A DNA stretch of 64,000 nt, taken from positions 14,213 through 78,212 of the forward strand of contig CANQQW010000001.1 in the NCBI GenBank assembly GCA_947626075.1. Direction: 5' to 3'. Numbering within the stretch: position 1 is the first letter of the stretch; each line of letters begins with the position of its first letter. Shown one piece after another: positions 3,001-45,983 of the stretch. The translations under genes and the position numbers were made by a program. This DNA is from an uncultured Clostridia bacterium (GTDB lineage: Bacteria; Bacillota; Clostridia; UBA1381). The notes beneath the pieces were generated by a model that did no database searches, was not told the origin of the DNA, and saw only the letters and a list, made by a program, of their open reading frames with translations.

Positions 3001-6000
3001 AGCCAAAACCGGTACTGACGTATAAGTTTTTTGAGAACGGTCCCGGTCAGCTTGTCGAAGGTGAGGACTATACTCTTTCATGGGAGTCGAACGTGAACGC
3101 GGGTACGGGAAAGGTAATTGTTCGCGGCATAAACCGGTTTTCAGGTGAGATGTCAATACCGTTCACTATCAATAAGCGCAGTATAACCGAAGCGAGAATT
3201 ACACAGATACCCGCACAAGACTATACGGGAAATCCCATTACGCCTAACCCGACCTTGACGTATAACGGACATAAGCTGTTACAGTCCGCTGATTATACGC
3301 TAAGCTATTCGGATAATACTACGGATATAGGTACGGTAACCATTACCATAACAGGTATCGGTAACTTCGAGGGCACAGTTAATACAACGTTTGAGATTGA
3401 ACCGTCAGGAATTGAAGGGGTAGCCGTACATCATATACCCGACCAAGAATATAACGGCAAGCCGCAAGAACCTGATTTGACAATCACGTACAAAGGACGA
3501 ACGCTCGAGGAAGATACCGACTATACGTTAGACTACTCGAATAACGTAGATGTGGGTACTGCCACTGTTACCATTACAGGCGTGGAAAACTCGGGCTTTA
3601 CAGGTACAACAGAAGCCAATTTTAATATTATCGCGTGTCCAATATCCCGTGCGGCGATAGAAACACCCGATAATGTGACGTATACAGGTTCTGAGATCAC
3701 ACCCGGTCTGACTATTACATACAACGGCATGACGCTTGAACAGAATGTGGACTACACATTGGGCTACAGCGAGAACGTAAATGCGGGTATGGCAGAGATT
3801 ATTGTGACCGGTATAGGTAACTATTCAGGTACACGCAGCACTAACTTCGGTATAGATCCGTGTGAGATTTCCAAAGCTGATATTTCGGAAATAGACGAGC
3901 AGATGTATACGGGTGAGGTAATCACACCCAAGCCGACGCTCTCGTTCAACGGTAAGACACTGGTACAGGGCGTAGACTATACGCTGTACTATTCCGAAAA
4001 CAGGGATATTGGTACGGCTACTATTACAATAACAGGTAACGGCAACTTTACCGGTGTGACAACTACCACGTTCCAAATCATAGCATCCGATATTAAGGAT
4101 GTCATAGTGCTTAACATACCCGACCAGCTATATACCGGTAAGCAGATAACGCCTGATCCGACAATTATGTTTAACGGGCGACTGCTGGCTAAAGACTACG
4201 ACTATACACTAAGTTATGAAAATAACGTGGACGTAGGCACGGCTACGGTAACGATAACAAGTGTAGAGGAATCGGACTTTGTGGGTACGGCTACCAAGAC
4301 GTTTGAAATTGTTCCAAGACCTATCGCTGACGCGGCTATTACTCTGCCGAAGCATGAGACATATACGGGCGATCCGATAACACCACACCTAACAATTGAG
4401 TTTGAGGGTATGAGCCTTGTAGTAGGCAAGGACTACAATATATCATATGATAGTAACACCAATGTCGGAATGGCAGAAATAGTAATTGAGGGTATCAATA
4501 ATTTTGAAGGTTCACGGCATACGGTGTTTACAATTGTACCCCGCAACATCTTTGAAGCGGACATCACGGAAATACCGCCGCAGCACTATACGGGCGATGC
4601 TCTGACACCTGAACCGACTATCTCGTATCGCGGTAAGCCACTTACAAAGAACGTCGATTATGTATTGATGTACGCGAACAACGTAAGGGAAGGTACGGCT
4701 ACGGTAACGGTAAGGGGTGTTGGTAACTTTACAGACATAGCAACAACGACATTCAAAATCGAGTCGTCAGGTGTTGACGGCGTAGTAGTTTTAGGTATAC
4801 CCGACCAAGTATATACGGGTAAGCCCATAACTCCTGAACCGACTATCTCGTATCGCGGTAAAACACTCACGAAGGACGAAGATTACACCTTGGACTATGA
4901 GAATAACATCAATGTAGGACGTGCAACGGTTAAAATCACGGGCATAGCAGGTTCGGGATTTGACGGAACGACAACTGTTTCGTTCAATATAACGCACAAA
5001 CCGATTGCTGACGCGGCAATTAAGCTGCCTGAGCACCATGTCTATACCGGTGAACCGATACAACCGGAAATGGAAGTCACGTTAGAGGATTTGACGCTTG
5101 TCAAGGACAAAGACTATACGGTAGACTATGATGATAATACGCGTGTTGGTACAGCCGAAGTGGTTATAACGGGCGTAGGCAACTTTGCCGGCACAAGACA
5201 TACGGTATTTGCTATCATGCCTTGCGATATAGAGGATACGGATATAGACGATATACCCGCACAGGACTATACAGGCTATCATATAACGCCTGATCCGCAT
5301 ATATCATATAACGGTCAGGATTTGATATTCGGACGCGATTATACGTTAAAGTATGAAGATAACCTTGAGGTAGGTACTGCTACCGTTACTATCGCCGGAA
5401 ACGGTAATTTTACGGGCACAGTGGACAAGACGTTTGAAATATCGGAAATGGATATTGATTATGTCGATATTGCGCCTATACCGTCACAAACATATACCGG
5501 TTATGAGATAACGCCCGAGATGTCAATCACGTTCCACGGCAGAACGCTTGTTAAGGGCTTGGACTATACGGTTGAGTTTGAGAATAACAAGGACGTAGGT
5601 ACGGCTACGGTAATAATTACAGGTATTCCCGAAGCGGGCGTTAAAGGAACAAAGGAAACAGAGTTTGACATAACTCCCGCACAAATAAGCTCTGCTAAGG
5701 TATCATCGGTACCGAAGCATGAAACATACACGGGCGATCCGTATACACCTGAACCGACGCTTGTGTTCAACGGTATAGAGCTTGTTAAAGATGTCGATTA
5801 CACGTTGGACTACTCGAATAACGTAGACGCGGGTGAGGTTGTAATCACCATTACCGGTATGGGTAATTTTGAGGGTACAATGACCGAAACGTTTGTTATA
5901 GAAGCTGTGCTTATAACCAACGTTGAAGTAACCGCTATCCCGGCAGAAACATATTCGGGTGAGGAAATAACCCCTGAACCGACAGTGACGTATGAAGGTA

Positions 6001-8173: not shown

Positions 8174-8203
8174 AAAGAAGGGCTTTGAAGCCCTTCTTTT
8201 TTT
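8174..8203 (+). terminator. Intrinsic terminator
   Basis: AAAGAAGGGCTT-TG-AAGCCCTTCTTT followed by T run. Confidence 0.9.
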
Positions 8204-8238: not shown

Positions 8239-8267
8239 TTGACATGAAATTTCCACTATGATATAAT
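8239..8267 (+). promoter_or_regulatory. Consensus sigma-A promoter with extended -10
   Basis: TTGACA (8239-8244), 17 bp, TG-n-TATAAT (8262-8267). Confidence 0.85.
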
Positions 8268-8273
8268 ACAGAT

Positions 8274-8502
8274 AAGTTATATGAAGTATTATGGAACGGA
8301 ACCACTATGTGATTTTGTTTCAACACTATTAAAAGTGACCGTTGGCGGGATTTTTGTACCATTTTTTATGAAGTAGTATAAAAATCCCTTTTGTTTATTT
8401 ACATCATTAGCAGAACGCAAAAAGACAAGTCGGTTACTTAAAAAATCAAGTTAAAAAAGAGAACGAAGATAATTATATTTTCGTTCTCTTTTTCTTTTTT
8501 TT
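8274..8502 (+). ncRNA. Candidate structured sRNA or attenuator leader
   Basis: Lies between a consensus promoter and a strong terminator. Nested helices AAGTGACCG/CGGTTACTT (8333-8341/8431-8439) and GGGATTTTTGTAC/GTATAAAAATCCC (8347-8359/8376-8388). No known family recognised. Confidence 0.4.
8454..8502. terminator. Strong, possibly bidirectional intrinsic terminator
   Basis: 14-bp stem AAAAAGAGAACGAA / TTCGTTCTCTTTTT with long T tail. Confidence 0.85.
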
Positions 8503-8586
8503 CTCAAGATGCTTATGTAATCATGTGTTCTCAAGGAGTTGTGTGCATATTTCCTTCTTGTTCCCGTAAAGAAAGGAATAAAGATT

Positions 8587-9105
8587 ATGGAAAAAACTCA
8601 AGAAGATTTAATATTGGACAATATAGATACCGCAAAGAATCTGGTACAAAGTATTTCCCAACGCCTACATTTAAGACCATCCACGCGCGAAGAATGTGAA
8701 GATATAGCCTTTTTTCAATTATGTAAGTGTGCATCCCAGTACGATGCAACGAAAGGCAAGTTTAAGACATATTTTGAAAAAAACGCAAGGTTCAAGATTT
8801 GGACATCCCTAAAAAAGGAGTTTCTGCATGGTATGTCGTATAGCAATAATTTAAATCTGCAAAACACACGGCAAATAGATTTAGATTTGAGCGAAATAGA
8901 AGCTACGAACGATGACATTACCGAAGCTGAAATAATCTTAGACATTAATAATATCCTTACGAAAAAACAACGCGATGCGTTTACTTATCTCCGTCAGGGA
9001 TTTGACAATCATAAAATTGCAGCAATTATAGGGATTTCAGATCGTGCTGCTCGCGCGTTAGTGCAACGTGTCAAAGATAAAATTTATATTGTTATCACTT
9101 CTTAA
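8587..9105 (+). CDS. Sigma-70-family (ECF/group 4-like) sigma factor
   Basis: Region-2-like EDIAFFQLCKCASQYDATKGKFKTY and region-4 HTH LTKKQRDAFTYLRQGFDNHKIAAIIGIS. ATG 8587 chosen from RBS AAAGGA. Confidence 0.7.
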   Translation: MEKTQEDLILDNIDTAKNLVQSISQRLHLRPSTREECEDIAFFQLCKCASQYDATKGKFKTYFEKNARFKIWTSLKKEFLHGMSYSNNLNLQNTRQIDLDLSEIEATNDDITEAEIILDINNILTKKQRDAFTYLRQGFDNHKIAAIIGISDRAARALVQRVKDKIYIVITS

Positions 9106-9298: not shown

Positions 9299-10756
9299 AT
9301 GGCAAAATATGATGACACTATGCCAATCGGCAAAAAAAGAAATCAGTCAATGCAGAACAACACAGAAGATGTAAAAGAGCCAATGTCACCGGAATCGCAT
9401 GACAGCGAACAGAAATTGCCTAATATGCCTGAACAGAAAGAACACGAAAAGCCTGAAACGACCGAAAATAACTCGGATGAACCGACAGAAAAGAAGTTGT
9501 CCGAAGAAGAAATATTAAGTTTACCGATACGTAAGGTAAAGAGCGGCGATCGTGTATTTTACGGACATTATGACGAGGAACGGCTAATAGTTTATCTAAT
9601 TGACGAGAACGGTAAACTGACGGGCAAATGCGGAAGATTGCATAAACCTTTACCGCCCAAACACCCACAGCCTGTTTCAGAGGATAGTTCTGATACGAAA
9701 CAAAACAATGCGCTGATGAATATTAAGGAGAGAAAGTTTAAAATCGGCTTCAATAAGGTTGATGATGAAAGAACATCCTCTTCGCCGCTTAAACGGTATA
9801 AAAAGGTTATTATTTTCGCTGCTGTTGCCTTAGCGGCAATTATTGGTATAGCGTCTTATCGAAGCGTCATGAACTCTGTATTTTCACCTAACGGGGACGA
9901 TAGCCCCGAACCGCAAGAAACGATTGCCCCGTCAGACGGGGAAATGTTGGTTATAGAAATAAACACTGACGTGATTGCAGGAGACGAAATAACAGAGGAT
10001 ATGCTGCAACCGGCTACCATAGACGGGCAAATGTATAACCAGATAGCAATTAATGGTAACGACTTGTATCGTTGGGATCAGCGCGAAAATATTATAGGTA
10101 TGTATGCCACGGAATATATCTCGCAAGGTCATTATATTACGACCAATTCGCTTTCAAAGATTGTTCGAGATGCTGAAAATCCGTGGATAATAAACAGCTC
10201 ACAGACAGCGTATGCGGATATACCTATTCAGTCTACAGAACTTGACGCATCAAGCATATTGATAGGAGACAAGCTTAAACTGGATTTTGAGGTCCAAGTA
10301 AGCGAGCAGGGCGTAAATAATACAGACGATACGGACGTTTCATCAGGGCAGAAAACTGTAACTATCAATTCGTATTCTATCAATAATGCCGTTATAGCGG
10401 ATATGTTCACAGCAAGCGACAAGAGTATATTCAATATATATACTGCGTTGTTATCTGTACCGGAAGGTAATCAGGAGTATTATCTAAAGAATATGTGCAA
10501 TAAAAATCCCAATTACTTAGACGGCATAAAACCTGTTAAGATACGTGTTTATTTTGATAAACAGTATGCGGATGCACTTTCGACTGCAATAGCAAGTCAG
10601 GAGAACATTCAAGTTACTTTGGGTGATGGCTCGGATATATCAACAACAGAGAAGAAACAGTTCTACGACGGGGAACGGGCATTACAAACAAGTTTTTCCA
10701 ATCTTGCAGCGGATAGCGACAGTATCAGTGTAGTGAAAGGGGACGATGAAAAATGA
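9299..10756 (+). CDS. Membrane-anchored SAF-domain (CpaB/RcpC-like) protein
   Basis: Charged low-complexity N-terminus, one TM (VIIFAAVALAAIIGIASY), SAF-like segment LVIEINTDVIAGDEITEDML...IIGMYATEYISQGHYIT. Confidence 0.6.
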   Translation: MAKYDDTMPIGKKRNQSMQNNTEDVKEPMSPESHDSEQKLPNMPEQKEHEKPETTENNSDEPTEKKLSEEEILSLPIRKVKSGDRVFYGHYDEERLIVYLIDENGKLTGKCGRLHKPLPPKHPQPVSEDSSDTKQNNALMNIKERKFKIGFNKVDDERTSSSPLKRYKKVIIFAAVALAAIIGIASYRSVMNSVFSPNGDDSPEPQETIAPSDGEMLVIEINTDVIAGDEITEDMLQPATIDGQMYNQIAINGNDLYRWDQRENIIGMYATEYISQGHYITTNSLSKIVRDAENPWIINSSQTAYADIPIQSTELDASSILIGDKLKLDFEVQVSEQGVNNTDDTDVSSGQKTVTINSYSINNAVIADMFTASDKSIFNIYTALLSVPEGNQEYYLKNMCNKNPNYLDGIKPVKIRVYFDKQYADALSTAIASQENIQVTLGDGSDISTTEKKQFYDGERALQTSFSNLAADSDSISVVKGDDEK

Positions 10757-11187
10757 TGTTAAATATATCAGAAAAGCTAAAAAAAATATGGCAACAGTTA
10801 AAAGAAACACAAGTTCCACCTGCATTAAGGACTATGCAAATCAAACGGTCACTGTTTGCAATAATGGTATTTGCTGTAACGATACTGTCAGCGATACTGA
10901 CGAAGAATGTAGGATTTTTGGTCGGCGCGATTATAGGTTTGTACTTGCTGTATTTAGTCGTTGCGATTAAGTACGACTATGCAAACGGGAAAATAGCCGA
11001 GTATACATTAACTTGTTTGTACATAAAAACGCAACCAAACCGATTAGCGATCGTATTCGCCGATGATGAAGATAACAGAGACGTGTTTTTCACGTTAAAC
11101 AAGAAAGATAATTTTATTGAAGATATAAAATACACAATCTACTGTAAGAATGAAAGCAAGGTTATTATTGCGTATGAGCAATCATGA
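10753..11187 (+). CDS. Hypothetical membrane protein (2 TM)
   Basis: ATGA overlap with the upstream gene; two hydrophobic segments. Confidence 0.75.
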   Translation: MMLNISEKLKKIWQQLKETQVPPALRTMQIKRSLFAIMVFAVTILSAILTKNVGFLVGAIIGLYLLYLVVAIKYDYANGKIAEYTLTCLYIKTQPNRLAIVFADDEDNRDVFFTLNKKDNFIEDIKYTIYCKNESKVIIAYEQS

Positions 11188-21106: not shown

Positions 21107-22285
21107 ATGGCAAAACGAGCCAACGGTGAAGGAACGATACGCAAACGAGTATCGGGGAAGAAAGGTAACATTAGGTGGGAAGGGAGGTATTACGATCCAT
21201 ACCTAAAGAAGCAAAAGAGTGTGTATGGGGACACTAAAGAGGAAGTCCGAAAGATGTTGTCACAGATTGCCGTAAAGAAAGACACGGGCAATTTTGTATC
21301 GCAAAACAACATAACGCTCGACGAATGGCGAGAAACGTACTTAAGCCTATACGTTGAAGGAGTATTAAAACCGCAAACGATCAGTGCAAAACAGAAAATG
21401 TATACGCTGCACATACAGCCAATGATTGGCAGTAAATGTGTACAGAACATAACAGATATGGATGTAAAAACACTGTTAAACCGGCTACAGGCGTTGCATT
21501 ATGCTACCAGTACCATATCCAACATACGCAACGAGCTATCTACCATGTTAAAAAGGGCAGTAGAGCATAAGCTCATAAGCAGCAATCCGGTAAGCAATAT
21601 CAAAGCGGTCAACGGTACAGACAGCAAAGAACGACGAGAACTGACAGACTATGAGCTAAAATGGTTTTTTCGAGGTTTAGAGGAGAGAAGACCACAAGAC
21701 CTGCTATTTTTCCTGATAATGGCAACCACAGGCGCAAGATGCGGTGAAGTTATAGGGTTACAGTGGTGCAACTTTTCAGACGACTATTCGAGTATGAGCA
21801 TAAACAAAACATATACTCAATACCAAACCGAGCAAGGAGTTATACGAGGGTTTAGCAAACCAAAGACGAAAACATCCGTTCGTACCATACCTATCATACC
21901 GAAAGTCAGTGAAGAATTACGGAAAAAATATGAGGAAAACAAAGAGATTATGTCTTCATTGAATCAAACAATATCCGATAATGACTTTATTTTTATGGAT
22001 TTTAGACGTGATAGGGTTAATAATCACAGTTATTATCGCAACGTCATAAAAGGTGTTTTAGATTATCTAAAGAGGTGTTACAACATAGAAATAGAGATGT
22101 TTTCAACACACTATTTTAGACATACGTTCACAAGCCGAGCATTGCGTAGTAATGTATCACTGGAAACATTAAAGCGATTGTTGGGACACAAGAGCTATAA
22201 TATGATCGAACAGGTTTATGCCCATGTATCTCAAAGCGACAAAGTTAATGCGGTAATGGCTATGTTCAGCGAAGCCAACAATTAG
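21107..22285 (+). CDS. int: Tyrosine integrase (Tn916-like N-terminal arm-binding domain)
   Basis: MAKRANGEGTIRKR..WEGRY N-terminus; catalytic TGARCGE, PKTKTS, HYFRH, LGH and VYAH. Confidence 0.95.
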   Translation: MAKRANGEGTIRKRVSGKKGNIRWEGRYYDPYLKKQKSVYGDTKEEVRKMLSQIAVKKDTGNFVSQNNITLDEWRETYLSLYVEGVLKPQTISAKQKMYTLHIQPMIGSKCVQNITDMDVKTLLNRLQALHYATSTISNIRNELSTMLKRAVEHKLISSNPVSNIKAVNGTDSKERRELTDYELKWFFRGLEERRPQDLLFFLIMATTGARCGEVIGLQWCNFSDDYSSMSINKTYTQYQTEQGVIRGFSKPKTKTSVRTIPIIPKVSEELRKKYEENKEIMSSLNQTISDNDFIFMDFRRDRVNNHSYYRNVIKGVLDYLKRCYNIEIEMFSTHYFRHTFTSRALRSNVSLETLKRLLGHKSYNMIEQVYAHVSQSDKVNAVMAMFSEANN

Positions 22286-22504: not shown

Positions 22505-22532
22505 TAAAATGCTGAAAAAAGGAGTGATTGCC

Positions 22533-23570
22533 ATGGATTTGAACGACAGAAAAAGAAAAATTCTTCAGGCAATCATTGACGAATACATCGGTACGGCGGA
22601 ACCTGTCGGCTCGCGCGCAATTTCAAAAAAAGAAAATCTCGGACTTTCAAGCGCCACCATACGCAACGAAATGGCTGACCTGGAGGAAATGGGCTATCTC
22701 ATTCAGCCTCACACCTCGGCGGGCAGAATACCGTCGGACGCGGGCTACCGCTTCTACGTAAACTCGCTTATGAGTAATTATAAAATAGGTATGGAAGCCG
22801 TGTCGCAGCTTCGGAATCTTCTTGAAACGCGGGTAAGCCAACTTGAAAAGCTGATAAAGTACGCGGCGGCTATCGCTTCCAGTCTTACCGATTACGCGAC
22901 CGTGGCGGCGGCGCCGAAAGAAAACAACTCGGAAATAAGAAAAATCGACCTTGTACCTGTATCGAACCATACCGTTATGCTGATAGTCGTGACGCGCAAC
23001 GTGCGCAGCCGCGCCATAAATACGGATATTGACGGCGAAAGCTGCGAAAAGCTGTCAAAGCTGTTAAACGCAAGACTTTCGGGACTTAAAGCGGACGATA
23101 TAGATTTTGCTAAAATACAGGAAATCCAAAGAGAAACGGAAAATAAGCTTTCAATAAATCCAAAGGTGCTTATAGATATACTTCATTTTCTATACGACAC
23201 CGTAACCGCCGACGCGGAAACGGAGATATATGTGAATAACGCGAAATCAATACTCCGTTATCCCGAATATAAAAATGTTGAGAAAGCGGAAAAGATACTG
23301 TCCTTTTTGGAGGATAAGGAGAATCTGAAAAAGCTTGTCGAGACTGACGGCAAGGACGGCATAGAAGCCAAGATAGGAAAGGAAAATGATTTTGAAATAT
23401 TGCAGGACTGCTCGCTTGTGAGCGTAAATTATTCGCTGGGCGATAAGGCGTCGGGTAAGCTCGCCGTCATAGGACCCAAACGCATGAATTACGCGAAAGT
23501 TTTCGCAAGTCTCGACCTTATTTCAAATGAAATAGATAAAATACTCGGTTACTATATGAATGACGGCTGA
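22533..23570 (+). CDS. hrcA: Heat-inducible transcription repressor HrcA
   Basis: LNDRKRKILQAIIDEYI..EPVGSR, SSATIRNEMADLE, HTSAGRIPS; CIRCE upstream; start from RBS AAGGAG. Confidence 0.97.
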   Translation: MDLNDRKRKILQAIIDEYIGTAEPVGSRAISKKENLGLSSATIRNEMADLEEMGYLIQPHTSAGRIPSDAGYRFYVNSLMSNYKIGMEAVSQLRNLLETRVSQLEKLIKYAAAIASSLTDYATVAAAPKENNSEIRKIDLVPVSNHTVMLIVVTRNVRSRAINTDIDGESCEKLSKLLNARLSGLKADDIDFAKIQEIQRETENKLSINPKVLIDILHFLYDTVTADAETEIYVNNAKSILRYPEYKNVEKAEKILSFLEDKENLKKLVETDGKDGIEAKIGKENDFEILQDCSLVSVNYSLGDKASGKLAVIGPKRMNYAKVFASLDLISNEIDKILGYYMNDG

Positions 23571-23586
23571 GGAAAGGGGTAATCTG

Positions 23587-24120
23587 ATGGAAATTAATGA
23601 AGAAAAAAATACCGCGGAAGAGGAAACCGCCGCGGAGGAAACGCAGAACCGGGAAGAGGCGGAGGAGAGGTCAAACGAGGAAATCCTTGAGGAAAAGCTT
23701 AAGGAACAGACTGATAAATACGTGCGTCTTTACGCCGAGTTTGACAACTTTCAAAAACGCACGCAGCGCGAAAAGGATATGCGCTACGGCGACGCGGTGA
23801 TAGACGCGGCTGCGGCGATACTTCCGATAGGCGATAACTTAGAGCGCGCGCTTAAAATCGAGGTTAAATCCGAGGACGCGGTAAAGCTTAAAGAGGGCGT
23901 AGAGATGGTTTTAAAGCAGTTTGCCGACACGCTTGACAAGCTCGGCGTAAAGCCGATAAAAGCCGAGGGCGAGCAGTTTGACCCGAATCTCCATAACGCC
24001 GTGATGCATATCGAGGACGATACGATAGACGATAACACCGTTGTTGAAGAGCTTATGAAAGGCTACATATACAAGGACAACCGCGTTGTTCGTCACAGTA
24101 TGGTAAAGGTAGCAAATTAA
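23587..24120 (+). CDS. grpE: Nucleotide exchange factor GrpE
   Basis: RLYAEFDNFQKR, FDPNLHNAV, RHSMVKVA; synteny. Confidence 0.97.
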   Translation: MEINEEKNTAEEETAAEETQNREEAEERSNEEILEEKLKEQTDKYVRLYAEFDNFQKRTQREKDMRYGDAVIDAAAAILPIGDNLERALKIEVKSEDAVKLKEGVEMVLKQFADTLDKLGVKPIKAEGEQFDPNLHNAVMHIEDDTIDDNTVVEELMKGYIYKDNRVVRHSMVKVAN

Positions 24121-24152
24121 ATTTTGATTTTTATTAAGGAGGACAATATATC

Positions 24153-25985
24153 ATGGGAAAAATAATAGGAATTGACCTGGGAACAACAAACAGCTGCGTG
24201 GCAGTTATGGAGGGCGGAAACCCGAACGTTATCACTAACAGTGAGGGCGCGAGAACCACTCCGTCCGTTGTCGCTTTCCAAAAGGACGGCGAGAGAATAG
24301 TCGGACAGGTGGCGAAGCGTCAGGCTGTCACCAATGCGGACAGAACTATAATGTCCATAAAGAGAAAAATGGGTACTACGGAAAAGGTTACGATAGACGG
24401 TAAGGCGTACACGCCGCAGGAAATTTCGGCAATGATTTTGTCGAAGCTAAAGCAGGACGCGGAAAGCTACCTCGGAGAAACGGTAACGCAGGCGGTCATT
24501 ACTGTTCCCGCTTACTTTAACGACTCACAGCGTCAGGCGACGAAAGACGCGGGTAAGATTGCGGGTCTTGAGGTAATGAGAATAGTAAACGAGCCTACGG
24601 CTGCGGCGCTTGCTTACGGCGTGGGCGAGAAAGATCAGAAGATAATGGTATACGACCTCGGCGGCGGTACGTTCGATGTGTCTATACTTGACATTTCGGA
24701 CGGCGTGTTCGAGGTGCTTTCGACAAACGGCGACACGCATTTGGGCGGCGACGATTTTGACCAAAGAATTATCGATTTCCTTGTATCGGAATTTAAGAAG
24801 AGCGACGGCGTAGACCTTTCGGGCGACAAAATGGCTATGCAGCGTCTTAAGGAAGCGGCGGAAAAGTCGAAGATAGAACTTTCGACAACTACTACCTCAA
24901 ACATCAACCTGCCGTTTATAACAGCCGACGCGTCAGGCCCCAAGCATATGGACATCACGCTTACAAAGGCTAAGTTTGACGAGCTTACGGCTGACCTTGT
25001 TGACAGAACGTTGACGTGTATCCGTAACGCTATGAGAGACGCGTCGCTCAGCGCGTCTCAGATCGACGAAGTTCTTCTTGTCGGCGGCTCGTCGAGAATA
25101 CCGGCTGTACAGGAAGCCGTTAAAAAGGAAATGGGCAAAGAGCCGAACAAGGGAATTAACCCCGACGAGTGCGTTGCCGTGGGCGCCGCAAGACAGGCGG
25201 GCGTTCTTTCGGGCGATAACTCGCAGGATATACTTCTTCTTGACGTAACGCCGCTGTCTCTCGGTATCGAAACTATGGGCGGCGTGTTCACGAAACTTAT
25301 CGAAAGAAACACTACAATACCAACCTCAAAGTCGCAGATATTCTCAACGGCGGCGGACGGTCAAACGTCGGTTGAGGTTCACGTTCTCCAGGGCGAGAGA
25401 GAAATGGCTCAGTACAATAAGACGCTCGGACGCTTTAACCTTACCGGCATAGCTCCCGCGCCGCGCGGCGTGCCGCAGATTGAGGTAACGTTTGACATTG
25501 ACGCGAACGGTATCGTAAACGTAAGCGCAAAGGATTTGGGAACGGGCAACGAGCAGAAAATTACGATTACAGCTTCTTCAAACCTTTCGGACGAAGATAT
25601 AGATAAAGCGGTGAAAGAAGCCGAAAAGTATGCGGAGGAGGACAAGAAGCGCAAAGAGGAAGTTGAGATTAGAAACAACGCCGAATCGCTTGTATACCAG
25701 TGTGAGAAAGCCGTTAAGGACGCTGGCGACAAGATTGACGACGCGACAATGGTAGAGACCGAGGTAAACAAGGTTAAGGAAGCGCTTAAGGGTACGGACA
25801 GCGCGGCTATAAAGGCGGCGACAGACGAGCTTCAGGAAAAGTTTTACACCGTAGCGCAGCAGATGTACGCACAGGCTAACCCGCAGGGCGCGGACCCGAA
25901 CGCGGGCGCGGATTCAAACGCGGCGCCGGGCGGAGATAATGTTTACGAAGCTGACTATAAGGAAGTAGACAACGATAACAAATAA
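24153..25985 (+). CDS. dnaK: Chaperone DnaK
   Basis: [32 protein letters not shown]. Confidence 0.99.
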
Positions 25986-25994
25986 AACAGACGC

Positions 25995-26023
25995 GGGGCT
26001 GTCTTAACCGACAGCCCCTGTTT
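25995..26023 (+). terminator. Intrinsic terminator after dnaK
   Basis: GGGGCTGTC-N6-GACAGCCCC followed by TGTTT. Confidence 0.75.
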
Positions 26024-26030
26024 GCGGTAG

Positions 26031-26124
26031 ATTATGATTTAGCGATGTATTTGCGGTGTGGACGTAGGGGCGGTCATTGGCCGCCCGTTCCCGACGTCCC
26101 GCATTTACACCGTCAAATCATAAT
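26031..26124. repeat. REP-containing miniature element, copy 1
   Basis: Terminal IR ATTATGATTT/AAATCATAAT enclosing GTAGGGGCGGTCATTGGCCGCCCG; first ~58 bp identical to copy 2. Confidence 0.8.
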
Positions 26125-26146
26125 TTACATACATTCAAAATACCCC

Positions 26147-26175
26147 TTTACAAACCAAACCAAATTTAGTATAAT
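26147..26175 (+). promoter_or_regulatory. Putative sigma-A promoter for dnaJ
   Basis: TTTACA, 17 bp, TATAAT. Confidence 0.6.
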
Positions 26176-26190
26176 ACCCATATTAGGCAG

Positions 26191-27315
26191 GTGAAAAAAT
26201 TGGCGGACAAGAGAGATTACTACGAGGTCCTGGGTGTCCAAAAGGGCGCGTCGGACGATGAAATAAAGAAAGCGTTCCGCAAGCAGAGCAAACAGTACCA
26301 CCCCGACCTCCACCCGGGCGACAAGGAAGCCGAGGAAAAGTTTAAGGAGGTAAACGAAGCGTATCAGGTACTTTCCGACCCGGAGAAAAAAGCCAACTAC
26401 GACCGATTCGGTCACGCGGGCGTAGACCCGAACTTCGGCGCGGGCGGCGGCTTTAACGGCGCAGGATTCGACTTTGGCGATATATTTGATATGTTTGGCG
26501 GTTTTGGCGGCTTCGGCGGCGGACGCAGGAACGGACCGAAACGCGGAGCGGATATACGTCAGACTGTAGATGTAAGCTTCGAGGAAGCGGCATTCGGCTG
26601 TAAGAGAAAACTGAACATCATGACGCAGGAAAAATGCGAAAGCTGCGGCGGCACGGGCGCGAAAAGAGGTACTCCCATAACTACTTGCACAAACTGCCGA
26701 GGCACGGGACGCGTACAGACTCAGCAGCGCACCATTTTAGGTTATATGACTACGGAAACCGTATGTCCGCAATGCCGAGGCGAGGGTAAAATTATAAAAG
26801 AACCGTGCCGCGACTGCCGAGGAACGGGCAGCGTCAGAAAAAACAAAACGATAGAGGTTCAAATCCCCGCCGGAATTGACAACGGACAAACCATACAACT
26901 CTCCGGCAAAGGCGAAGCGGGAGCAAAGGGCGGACCGAACGGCGATTTGCTCATTACCGTAAGAGTCCGTCCGCACGAGGTATTTCGCCGTGAGGGAAAC
27001 AATGTACTTATTGATATGCCGATAACCTTTGTACAGGCGGCATTGGGCGCTACGGTCAAGGTACCGACGCTCGACGGACCCGTGGAACTGACCATTCCCG
27101 AGGGAACGCAAACCTCATCGCGTTTCCGCATGAAAGGGAAAGGTATTCCGTATCTAAAAAGCAAATCGCGAGGCGACCAGTATGTAACGGTAAACGTTGA
27201 AGTACCGAGGAACCTGACCGCGAAGCAGAAAGAAATTCTGCGCAATTTTGACGAGGATAATAATTATAAACAGAAGAAAAGCTTTTACGATAAAATGAAA
27301 GATTTTCTTAAATAA
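26191..27315 (+). CDS. dnaJ: Chaperone DnaJ
   Basis: J domain with HPD, G/F region, four CxxCxGxG motifs; the start may be the TTG at 26200. Confidence 0.98.
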
Positions 27316-45679: not shown

Positions 45680-45790
45680 GGCTCAGACCGAGTTTTCCGC
45701 AACACACCGCCCACACCGCTTATTGCTGCTTGGTTCCCCATCTGACAAGGTTCACGGGGCGCGGTCGCGCGGGCTCGGTCATCATCGCCG
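45680..45790 (-). ncRNA. ffs: Small bacterial SRP RNA (4.5S type)
   Basis: Minus-strand GTGAACCTTGTCAGATGGGGAACCAAGCAGCAATAAGCG (domain IV), closing GACCGAG/CTCGGTC stem, conserved position upstream of dnaX; ends approximate. Confidence 0.9.
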
Positions 45791-45824: not shown

Positions 45825-45983
45825 TACTTTAATTCAAACTTTGTGTAAAATAATTTTTATTACGCAGTATATAATTTTATTTTTATAGGTATTTTCTATT
45901 GTTTTATTCGTTATTTTCAGATTATAATACATATATGATAAAATGTCAATATCATACTATAAAACAAACGGGACGGATAAAAT

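Follow-up and report, generated by a model that had tools for sequence, protein, structure and literature searches.

The 64,000-nucleotide stretch analysed here (the window; contig CANQQW010000001.1 of an uncultured Clostridia bacterium) contains part of an integrative and conjugative element (ICE), and a leader at positions 8239 to 8502 lies in front of a gene of this element that encodes a sigma-70-family protein. Sequence comparison indicates that this leader is one member of an operon-leader cassette that is repeated in phages and conjugative elements of gut Clostridia and that carries a short invariant motif, designated Box A, between a strong promoter and strong intrinsic terminators. 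A plausible reading, to which a probability of about 0.5 can be given, is that the sigma-operon leader is a terminator gate and that antitermination opens it, with Box A and the next hairpin as the directing signal, in a nut-like or put-like manner. A preliminary description, made from the letters alone, had seen here a consensus promoter, a structured RNA of about 230 nt with nested helices and a strong terminator; it had overlooked Box A, the key conserved element of the leader.

Anatomy of the sigma-operon leader

The leader is made of the following features, in which z compares folding with that of shuffled sequences, MFE is the minimum free energy structure and L001 is the nearest relative.

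8239-8267, + strand: consensus sigma-A promoter, TTGACA-17-TGaTATAAT, 12/12 match plus TG (extended -10)
8279-8287, + strand: Box A, ATATGAAGT, unpaired in the MFE of the terminated RNA; invariant core across cassettes
8292-8322, + strand: hairpin HP1 of the MFE fold, 5 nt past Box A; 5' arm rich in purines, G-U pairs frequent
8347-8398, + strand: terminator T1, stem-loop 8347-8388 of 13 bp plus a 5-bp apical stem, GC-closed, U-tract UUUUGUUUAU; -17.9 kcal/mol, z -7.0
8399-8453, + strand: T1-T2 spacer of 55 nt, unstructured and fast-evolving; z +1.1, 73% identity to L001
8454-8502, + strand: terminator T2, 18-bp stem (8454-8493), 4-nt loop, U-run to 8502; z -6.6
8587-9105, + strand: sigma-70-family gene, 172 aa, sigma-2 and sigma-4 domains (family profile against structures)

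The predicted RNA starts with an unpaired 5' end that includes Box A and continues through HP1, T1 and the spacer to T2. An RNA stopped at T1 would be about 120 nt long, and one stopped at T2 about 228 nt; the U-tract of T1 is broken in the window. The z-score of the whole RNA, -6.5, is due to T1 and T2, because these are the only segments that fold better than shuffled sequences. HP1 is weak alone (z -0.8 for the segment of Box A plus hairpin), and the 84 nt between the end of T2 and the ATG of the sigma gene fold no better than shuffles (z -0.5). The leader RNA is two tandem terminators, not a single folded domain.

This changes the view of the region in several respects. The inner helix of 13 bp in the preliminary description does exist at 8347-8388, where it is the stem of T1, an intrinsic terminator with its own U-tract, rather than the inner part of a larger domain. 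The outer helix of 9 bp is not supported, because its 3' strand falls in the spacer, which carries an indel there and at 73% identity to L001 is no better conserved than the neutral flanks; nor do the nested helices form one structured RNA of about 230 nt, since only T1 and T2 fold better than shuffles. The strong terminator before the sigma gene is real, with a stem of 18 bp by the program's count instead of 14 bp and a distance of 84 nt instead of 85 to the start codon, which is at 8587 and not 8588. In agreement with the earlier remark that no known riboswitch motif is recognisable, an Rfam scan found no family at the gathering threshold and none at E<=10, the best sub-threshold hits being generic hairpin matches to T2 (28 vs 55.8 bits).

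The promoter was described correctly, and it and both terminators are far beyond chance. A perfect TTGACA-17-TATAAT occurs twice in the 64 kb, one occurrence being that at 8239, which is also the only + strand promoter above 10/12 between 8000 and 22500. Transcription probably starts at about 8274, taking a start site some 7 nt after the -10 hexamer. No sigma-A-like site of 10/12 or better is present between 8268 and 8586 on either strand, as the preliminary statement of no obvious second promoter had it. The other perfect site (45921-45949, - strand) lies about 140 bp upstream of the gene for the signal recognition particle (SRP) RNA (45683-45781, - strand), on the same strand as that gene, and so perfect consensus promoters appear to be used for abundant RNAs in this genome. 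Upstream of the cassette is a gene for a 2683-aa LRR/SLH surface protein (Pfam LRR_5/SLH). A hairpin between an A-run and a T-run at its end (8174-8199), listed as terminator-like on the - strand but also followed by a T-run on the + strand, probably insulates the cassette from upstream transcription.

Conservation between close relatives

The nearest relative is found in a metagenome-assembled genome (MAG) of a rabbit-gut Clostridia bacterium (L001/L003), whose sigma protein is 84% identical. Identity to L001 is 93% in the promoter, 96% in Box A plus HP1, 100% in the linker, 86% in the T1 segment, 98% in T2 and 86% in the leader after T2, compared with 79% at third codon positions of the sigma gene and with 73%, 74% and 73% in the end of the upstream gene, the intergenic spacer and the T1-T2 spacer, which are the fast segments. 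The stretch from the promoter through the T1 stem, and T2, are thus 93-100% identical. The differences in the T1 segment include the length of the U-tract and one base in the apical loop; the stem is kept in L001, where the U-run is longer, and variants within one lineage differ solely in T-run length. Both substitutions in HP1 preserve pairing (C-G to U-G, A-U to G-U). The leaders are too diverged for alignment-wide covariation, and RNAalifold recovered only parts of HP1, T1 and T2.

Box A and the distribution of the cassette

Relatives were gathered from homologues of the sigma protein and their contigs, and from relatives of VirB4; all cassettes found in this way come from uncultured organisms. 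At least 10 diverged lineages share this architecture, with a near-consensus sigma-A promoter, Box A, a small hairpin, one or two strong terminators and, mostly, AAGGAG. The cassette precedes the sigma gene in 8 lineages (window/L001, L002B, L034, L036-41, L043-46, L048 and L049-51; in L047 it stands before a 179-aa gene, and the sigma gene comes next), and the sigma proteins of these lineages are only 25-36% identical to one another. Tandem T1 and T2 are present in window/L001, L036, L043, L048, L049 and the phage cassettes, and terminator strength, among the terminators listed, ranges from -12.7 to -22 kcal/mol. The cassette is absent from ICE loci that have a related VirB4 (27-68% identity) but no sigma gene of this family upstream.

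The leaders can be aligned only at the promoter hexamers and Box A, even the promoter spacers being diverged. The consensus of Box A is ATATGAAG(T/C), located 10-17 nt downstream of the -10 hexamer; all 12 independent cassettes have TATGAAG, usually with T as the next base, and at least 10 of them have ATATGAAG. In the RNA, Box A reads AUAUGAAGU and would occupy about +6 to +14, given the start site proposed above. A small hairpin follows 5-10 nt past Box A in every cassette.

L002B and L034 form a sub-family with a single strong terminator instead of two. In both, Box A (UAUGAAGCRUU) is one strand of an 11-bp long-range helix, the other strand of which lies 15-20 nt ahead of the terminator (L002 4131-4142 with 4274-4285; L034 276-287 with 431-442), with one compensatory change from G-C to A-U.

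The cassette is not confined to sigma genes. In the L002 MAG, a second full copy (L002 2661) precedes a gene for a 344-aa secreted cargo protein with an HEFGH zinc-protease motif, and another contig of this rabbit-gut MAG (L078) has copies on the reverse strand at 2414, 3838 and 6821, which precede genes for TnpB (OrfB_IS605 with a Cas12f-like TNB domain), a PDDEXK_2 transposase-like protein and a 440-aa membrane protein. Among the copies of this genome the promoter spacers differ, but the hairpin GAGGAAAAG-loop-CUUUUCCUC is kept, as is Box A. The cassette in this MAG behaves like a mobile regulatory cassette. A further MAG contig (L158) has two copies, and in IMG/VR a pattern scan picked out two phage-like contigs, with at least five copies (L185+L211, IMGVR_UViG_3300014824_000073) and at least three copies (L180, IMGVR_UViG_3300045988_130598), all on one strand in each contig. 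The copies of L185 are spaced 2.6-3.4 kb apart, and each of the five copies given in full consists of promoter, Box A, T1, T2 (and T3 in one), a Shine-Dalgarno (SD) sequence and open reading frames (ORFs).

The T2 sequences of the two phage-like contigs fall into types common to both. These contigs have many small ORFs, with no sigma-family ORF on the parts seen, and a 1079-aa ORF whose N-terminal sequence suggests a ribonucleotide reductase. Annotated plasmids and phages, searched at both the nucleotide and the protein level, gave no relatives, and P0031 searches of genome and metagenome collections gave nothing useful. Among the matches listed in a genome-wide pattern scan nearly all were due to chance, and in many of them the ATG is a real gene start.

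Absence of a competing fold and of other sigma-A promoters

The best fold of the nascent RNA was compared with the best fold in which the 3' arm of the terminator was barred from pairing, for 15 terminators of 9 leaders. The terminator fold was ahead by 10.4-20.9 kcal/mol in all 15; in the window the gaps are 15.4 kcal/mol for T1 and 19.3 kcal/mol for T2, and none of the 17 nt of the T2 5' arm that were scored is paired in the best alternative. Classical attenuation by refolding is therefore not supported, since there is no competing antiterminator fold in any lineage tested, and read-through needs something besides RNA refolding. On the - strand, 10 leaders contain no sigma-A-like promoter of 10/12 or better, and the weak matches show no positional conservation. 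A second sigma-A promoter of 10/12 or better on the + strand is likewise missing inside any leader, so a sigma-A-driven transcript would have to reach the sigma gene through T1 and T2.

The segment beyond the terminators

Two features of the window lie between T2 and the sigma gene.

8533-8545, + strand: AAGGAG(TTGTGTG) box, SD-like but not the SD of the sigma gene; AAGGAGTTG is common to the window, L002 (4370) and L034 (531)
8550-8578, + strand: UUUCCUU (8550-8556), complementary to the sigma SD AAAGGAA (8572-8578) and paired with it in the MFE

Most lineages have an AAGGAG(G/T) SD-like box after the terminators, which in the sigma leaders is not the SD of the sigma gene and whose frame relative to that gene is not conserved. 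AAGGAGG or GAGGAGG stands at the equivalent place in L036, L043, L047 and L049; in L048 its distance from T2 is about 100 nt. The conservation of this box beyond the terminators suggests that read-through transcripts are under selection.

UUUCCUU may mask the sigma SD, as judged from the predicted fold. The triad of AAGGAG (8533-8538), UUUCCUU and AAAGGAA is shared, with variable spacing, only with L002B (L002 4370-4445) and L034 (531-600), and its middle element is able to pair with either neighbour, so masking or unmasking of the sigma SD would be possible. Three intergenic regions of the element share an 8-mer, TATGTAAT: the one that follows T2 (8513-8520) and those before the operon of an S1-like gene (about 11311) and before a 417-aa gene (about 17687). 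This 8-mer is not conserved in L002 and could be either chance or part of a sigma-dependent promoter. Three other candidates were discarded: AAGGAGTTGTGTG as a repeated promoter-like motif, of which the window has one occurrence only; an N-terminal extension of the sigma protein from TTG 8539, which in L002 does not keep its frame with respect to the motif; and base-pairing between the 5' end and the sequence past T2, taken from the MFE of the full leader of the window, which is significant only in L002B (z -3.3) and at chance level elsewhere.

The sigma gene and the conjugative element

In a single-sequence Pfam search, the scores of the ORF at 8587-9105 for Sigma70_r2 and r4_2 are just under the cut-offs. 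The family profile matches the structures of SigH (3mzy, residues 47-170), FliA/WhiG region 2 and SigA, with both domains covered, and on this comparison the ORF encodes a true two-domain member of the sigma-70 family. The family is rare, with 29 representatives at E<=1e-3 among 1.8 billion protein cluster representatives.

The main genes of the element after the sigma gene are the following.

9299-10756, + strand: 485-aa protein with one central transmembrane segment; no Pfam match
10753-11187, + strand: 144-aa protein with two transmembrane segments; no Pfam match
21107-22285, + strand: tyrosine integrase, at the right end of the element

Further + strand genes downstream encode S1-like, PrgI-like, VirB4-like, DUF5697, DUF6100 and NA37 proteins. 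The host genes hrcA-grpE-dnaK-dnaJ (22509-27315) lie directly beyond the integrase gene, and the left part of the element lies before the start of the window. The label of ICE sigma gene in the preliminary description is fair, given a two-domain sigma factor followed by conjugation genes and a tyrosine integrase.

The order of sigma gene, 440-485-aa gene and gene of about 142 aa is conserved, with an S1-like gene next where the locus reaches that far, and for the 485-aa and 144-aa genes this synteny is seen in L036, L043, L048 and L052. The layout of these two genes suggests an anti-sigma pair. The nearest relatives of the sigma protein outside the ICE clade (P0037, P0038, P0041; L056-L060) are encoded, without the cassette, in phage replication modules, which in L056-L060 carry SSB, an ERCC4-like nuclease, a helicase and a methylase; this points to a phage-like ancestry of the ICE sigma factor.

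Antitermination as the favoured reading

A default-off gate is suggested by a consensus promoter that fires into tandem terminators, with no cis-acting switch and no other sigma-A promoter, by an element that is kept beyond the terminators, and by an invariant box with an element-specific hairpin in front of several operons. In such a gate the very strong sigma-A promoter would fire, transcription would by default stop at T1 or T2, and no sigma factor would be made; its expression would begin only once RNA polymerase had been made terminator-resistant. The signal would be Box A in the nascent RNA together with the following hairpin, acting as a nut site or as a put-type cis-acting RNA; in the nut-type variant, the conserved linear box and the element-specific hairpin would load a protein factor. 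As the same cassette stands before other operons, the gate would be a regulon-wide switch rather than a device specific to the sigma gene. Although the anatomy, the conservation, the multicopy use and the absence of cis alternatives are matters of observation, we infer termination in vivo, read-through and conditional bypass, and the identity of any factor, from sequence. Two tandem terminators in most lineages fit processive rather than local control, and the conservation of the hairpin within a genome where the promoter spacers diverge resembles, by analogy, the boxA/boxB pattern. Of the two options left by the preliminary description, a stand-alone small RNA (sRNA) or a leader gating the sigma gene by attenuation or antitermination, the leader with antitermination is favoured by the 8 sigma lineages, the lack of another sigma-A promoter and the reuse of the cassette; refolding attenuation is very improbable and the sRNA rather unlikely.

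Several points weigh against this reading. In some cassettes the hairpin after Box A is the first terminator itself, and in L002B and L034 the predicted 11-bp helix would bury Box A, which would then not always be accessible. Box A is, as far as we can judge, unlike the boxA that binds NusB/NusE and unlike ops. No NusG, N or Q-like domain was found among the element genes of the window as a candidate antitermination protein. The public sequencing runs that contain the region are rabbit-gut DNA runs only, with no RNA run among them. Finally, the sequence alone leaves room for a non-sigma-A or sigma-dependent promoter after T2.

It may even be, though the odds are against it, that Box A and the hairpin form the recruitment site of a new processive antitermination system of gut Clostridia phages and conjugative elements. 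Such a system would be a Gram-positive counterpart of nut or ops and would gate many operons per element, including that of the ICE master sigma factor; a host factor or RNA polymerase itself would recognise Box A, and a protein specific to each element would recognise the variable hairpin.

Comparison with known systems

The order of promoter, short conserved linear box, spacer with hairpin, terminators and genes is the same in lambda N/nut and HK022 put. As at the lambda nut sites, the box does not vary from element to element, each element repeats a hairpin of its own, and several operons per element are involved; the layout expected of a nut site, a linear box plus hairpin between promoter and terminators in more than one operon per element, is what is found here. 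Unlike lambda nut, the cassette belongs to uncultured gut Clostridia, is present at five or more sites on one contig and has a hairpin that is sometimes a terminator too; no N-like protein was recognised among the genes of the window. The lambda PR'-6S-tR' region with Q is also alike in having a constitutive near-consensus promoter, a short abundant RNA and a strong terminator some 200 nt on that gates the late regulon, with a conserved element in the initially transcribed region, as Box A is. TATGAA of Box A is -10-like at 4/6 positions, recalling the initially transcribed region of PR'. Unlike PR', however, Box A lacks the -7 T that we take to be needed for a sigma-dependent pause element; the PR'/Q comparison also leaves the invariant GAAG of Box A unexplained, and there is no conserved Q-binding element in or near the promoter.

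Among conjugative systems of Gram-positive bacteria, the enterococcal plasmids control conjugation genes after initiation through prgQ/anti-Q and iad/mD. In pAD1 (iad-t1/t2-traE1) and pCF10 (prgQ-IRS1) an active promoter makes a short RNA that is stopped by terminators upstream of conjugation genes, and in pAD1 two terminators, t1 and t2, lie ahead of the positive regulator traE1. These RNAs code for an inhibitor peptide that is conserved, and a convergent antisense RNA controls them, whereas the cassette has neither a conserved peptide nor an antisense promoter; the convergent promoter that marks antisense attenuation of the pCF10, pAD1 and pIP501 type is missing from the leaders. The leader of pLS20 combines a zipper-type attenuator, cATT, with processive antitermination by conAn (PMC13401043, PMC8191782), and Tn916 has canT (PMC11658703). 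As in the cassette, the transfer genes of these Gram-positive conjugative elements are punctuated by terminators and are controlled after initiation from the leader. The terminator of the window is placed as in the cATT family, T2 ending 84 nt before the sigma ATG. However, cATT has terminator and antiterminator conformers of similar free energy (PMC13401043), and neither the window nor 8 other cassettes have a weak upstream stem-loop, complementary to the 5' arm and loop of the terminator, that would extend a long central stem into an antiterminator of similar energy. The conserved part of the cassette is a 9-nt box and a small hairpin, whereas the RNAs of conAn and canT are large, about 300-450 nt, and conAn also has a protein dedicated to it. 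The conAn layout has the ConAn1 gene first and then the conAn2 RNA of about 300 nt; the first gene here is of the sigma-70 family, and the next two have no Pfam matches. A leader peptide of the Tn916 orf12 type is not apparent, there being no SD, no conserved ORF and no alternative structures. The PeSL cassettes of T4-like phages, near-perfect sigma-70-type promoters with stem-loops repeated before variable ORFs, have been proposed to move and shuffle genes (PMC4122927). Repetition and a near-consensus promoter are shared with them, but the layout is not: the PeSL stem-loop precedes the promoter and terminates the gene before it, whereas the cassette has its one to three terminators after the promoter and Box A, between the promoter and the gene that it serves. 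The cassette lacks the defining features of cATT, antisense, leader-peptide and PeSL systems and has an invariant motif of its own.

Alternative explanations

A rather unlikely alternative is that the cassettes encode a multicopy sRNA family, an abundant RNA of 55-230 nt whose 5' AUAUGAAGU would act in trans as a seed or a protein-binding tag; the terminators would merely end the sRNA and insulate the downstream gene, and the sigma gene would have its own non-sigma-A promoter. The sole other perfect consensus promoter of the window indeed stands just upstream of an abundant RNA, that of SRP; Box A is invariant, 5'-proximal and unpaired in the RNA of the window; there are several copies per element, as in multicopy sRNA families; and the minimal copies consist of Box A and a terminator only. 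A conserved target complementary to Box A, CUUCAUA, is however absent from the gene starts of the elements. The body of the RNA is conserved neither in sequence nor in structure, an sRNA gene would not usually have two or three terminators in tandem, and in L002B and L034 a helix hides Box A. An SD-like box is moreover conserved past the terminators, and every described cassette is followed, within about 400 nt, by a gene in the same orientation that lacks another sigma-A promoter, although co-orientation is weak evidence because the genes of these elements lie largely on a single strand. A further alternative is a passive leaky attenuator and insulator, in which a strong promoter and two imperfect terminators would give a low, constant trickle of sigma factor, Box A would contribute to promoter escape, stability or pausing but play no part in switching, and the real control would be post-translational, through the conserved membrane proteins encoded after the sigma gene as candidate anti-sigma factors. 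The 485-aa single-transmembrane and 144-aa two-transmembrane proteins in conserved synteny agree with this, as do the broken U-tract of T1 and the absence of a cis switch and of a recognised factor. We nevertheless consider it unlikely, because it leaves unexplained both an exact, invariant box of 8-9 nt where all other leader bases have diverged and the same gate before many operons on phage contigs, and because the constant firing of a consensus promoter into terminators would be wasteful.

Control of T1 by translation of a leader peptide is very improbable. The AUG of Box A is followed by AAG and opens a short ORF in every cassette, and the ORF of the window (31 aa, 8281-8376) has its stop inside the T1 hairpin. 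This AUG, however, has no SD in any lineage, and the ORFs of twelve cassettes are 2, 2, 3, 4, 4, 5, 12, 15, 16, 31, 38 and >40 aa long, most of them ending before T1, with nothing conserved past MK; between the window and L001 there are two nonsynonymous changes and one synonymous change, and translation would be unable to affect T2. Equally remote is a zipper-type or classical structural attenuator, or an antisense-RNA attenuator, as in pLS20 cATT, pCF10 and pAD1. The position would suit it, a terminator lying just before the first regulatory gene of a Gram-positive conjugation block, and the nested helices of the preliminary description superficially resemble ext-SL-3 (PMC13401043). The outer helix, however, is not conserved, the terminators of the window lead their alternatives by 15-19 kcal/mol, the 5' arm of T2 has no upstream partner, and no lineage has an antisense promoter.

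Significance

To our knowledge, how conjugative elements of gut Clostridia control their transfer has hardly been studied. In the present element the putative master regulator, a rare sigma factor that the element itself encodes, stands behind a double terminator that is fed by a consensus promoter. Whether it encodes an sRNA or is a gate, the cassette is a portable part, a strong promoter with a tight gate, which may be of use in Clostridia genetics. If it gives rise to a multicopy sRNA instead, it would represent an undescribed RNA family of phages and ICEs. If Box A is an antitermination signal, it would be a new and easily searchable regulatory code for a group of mobile elements and would point to a factor, of the host or itself mobile, that decides when these elements switch on.

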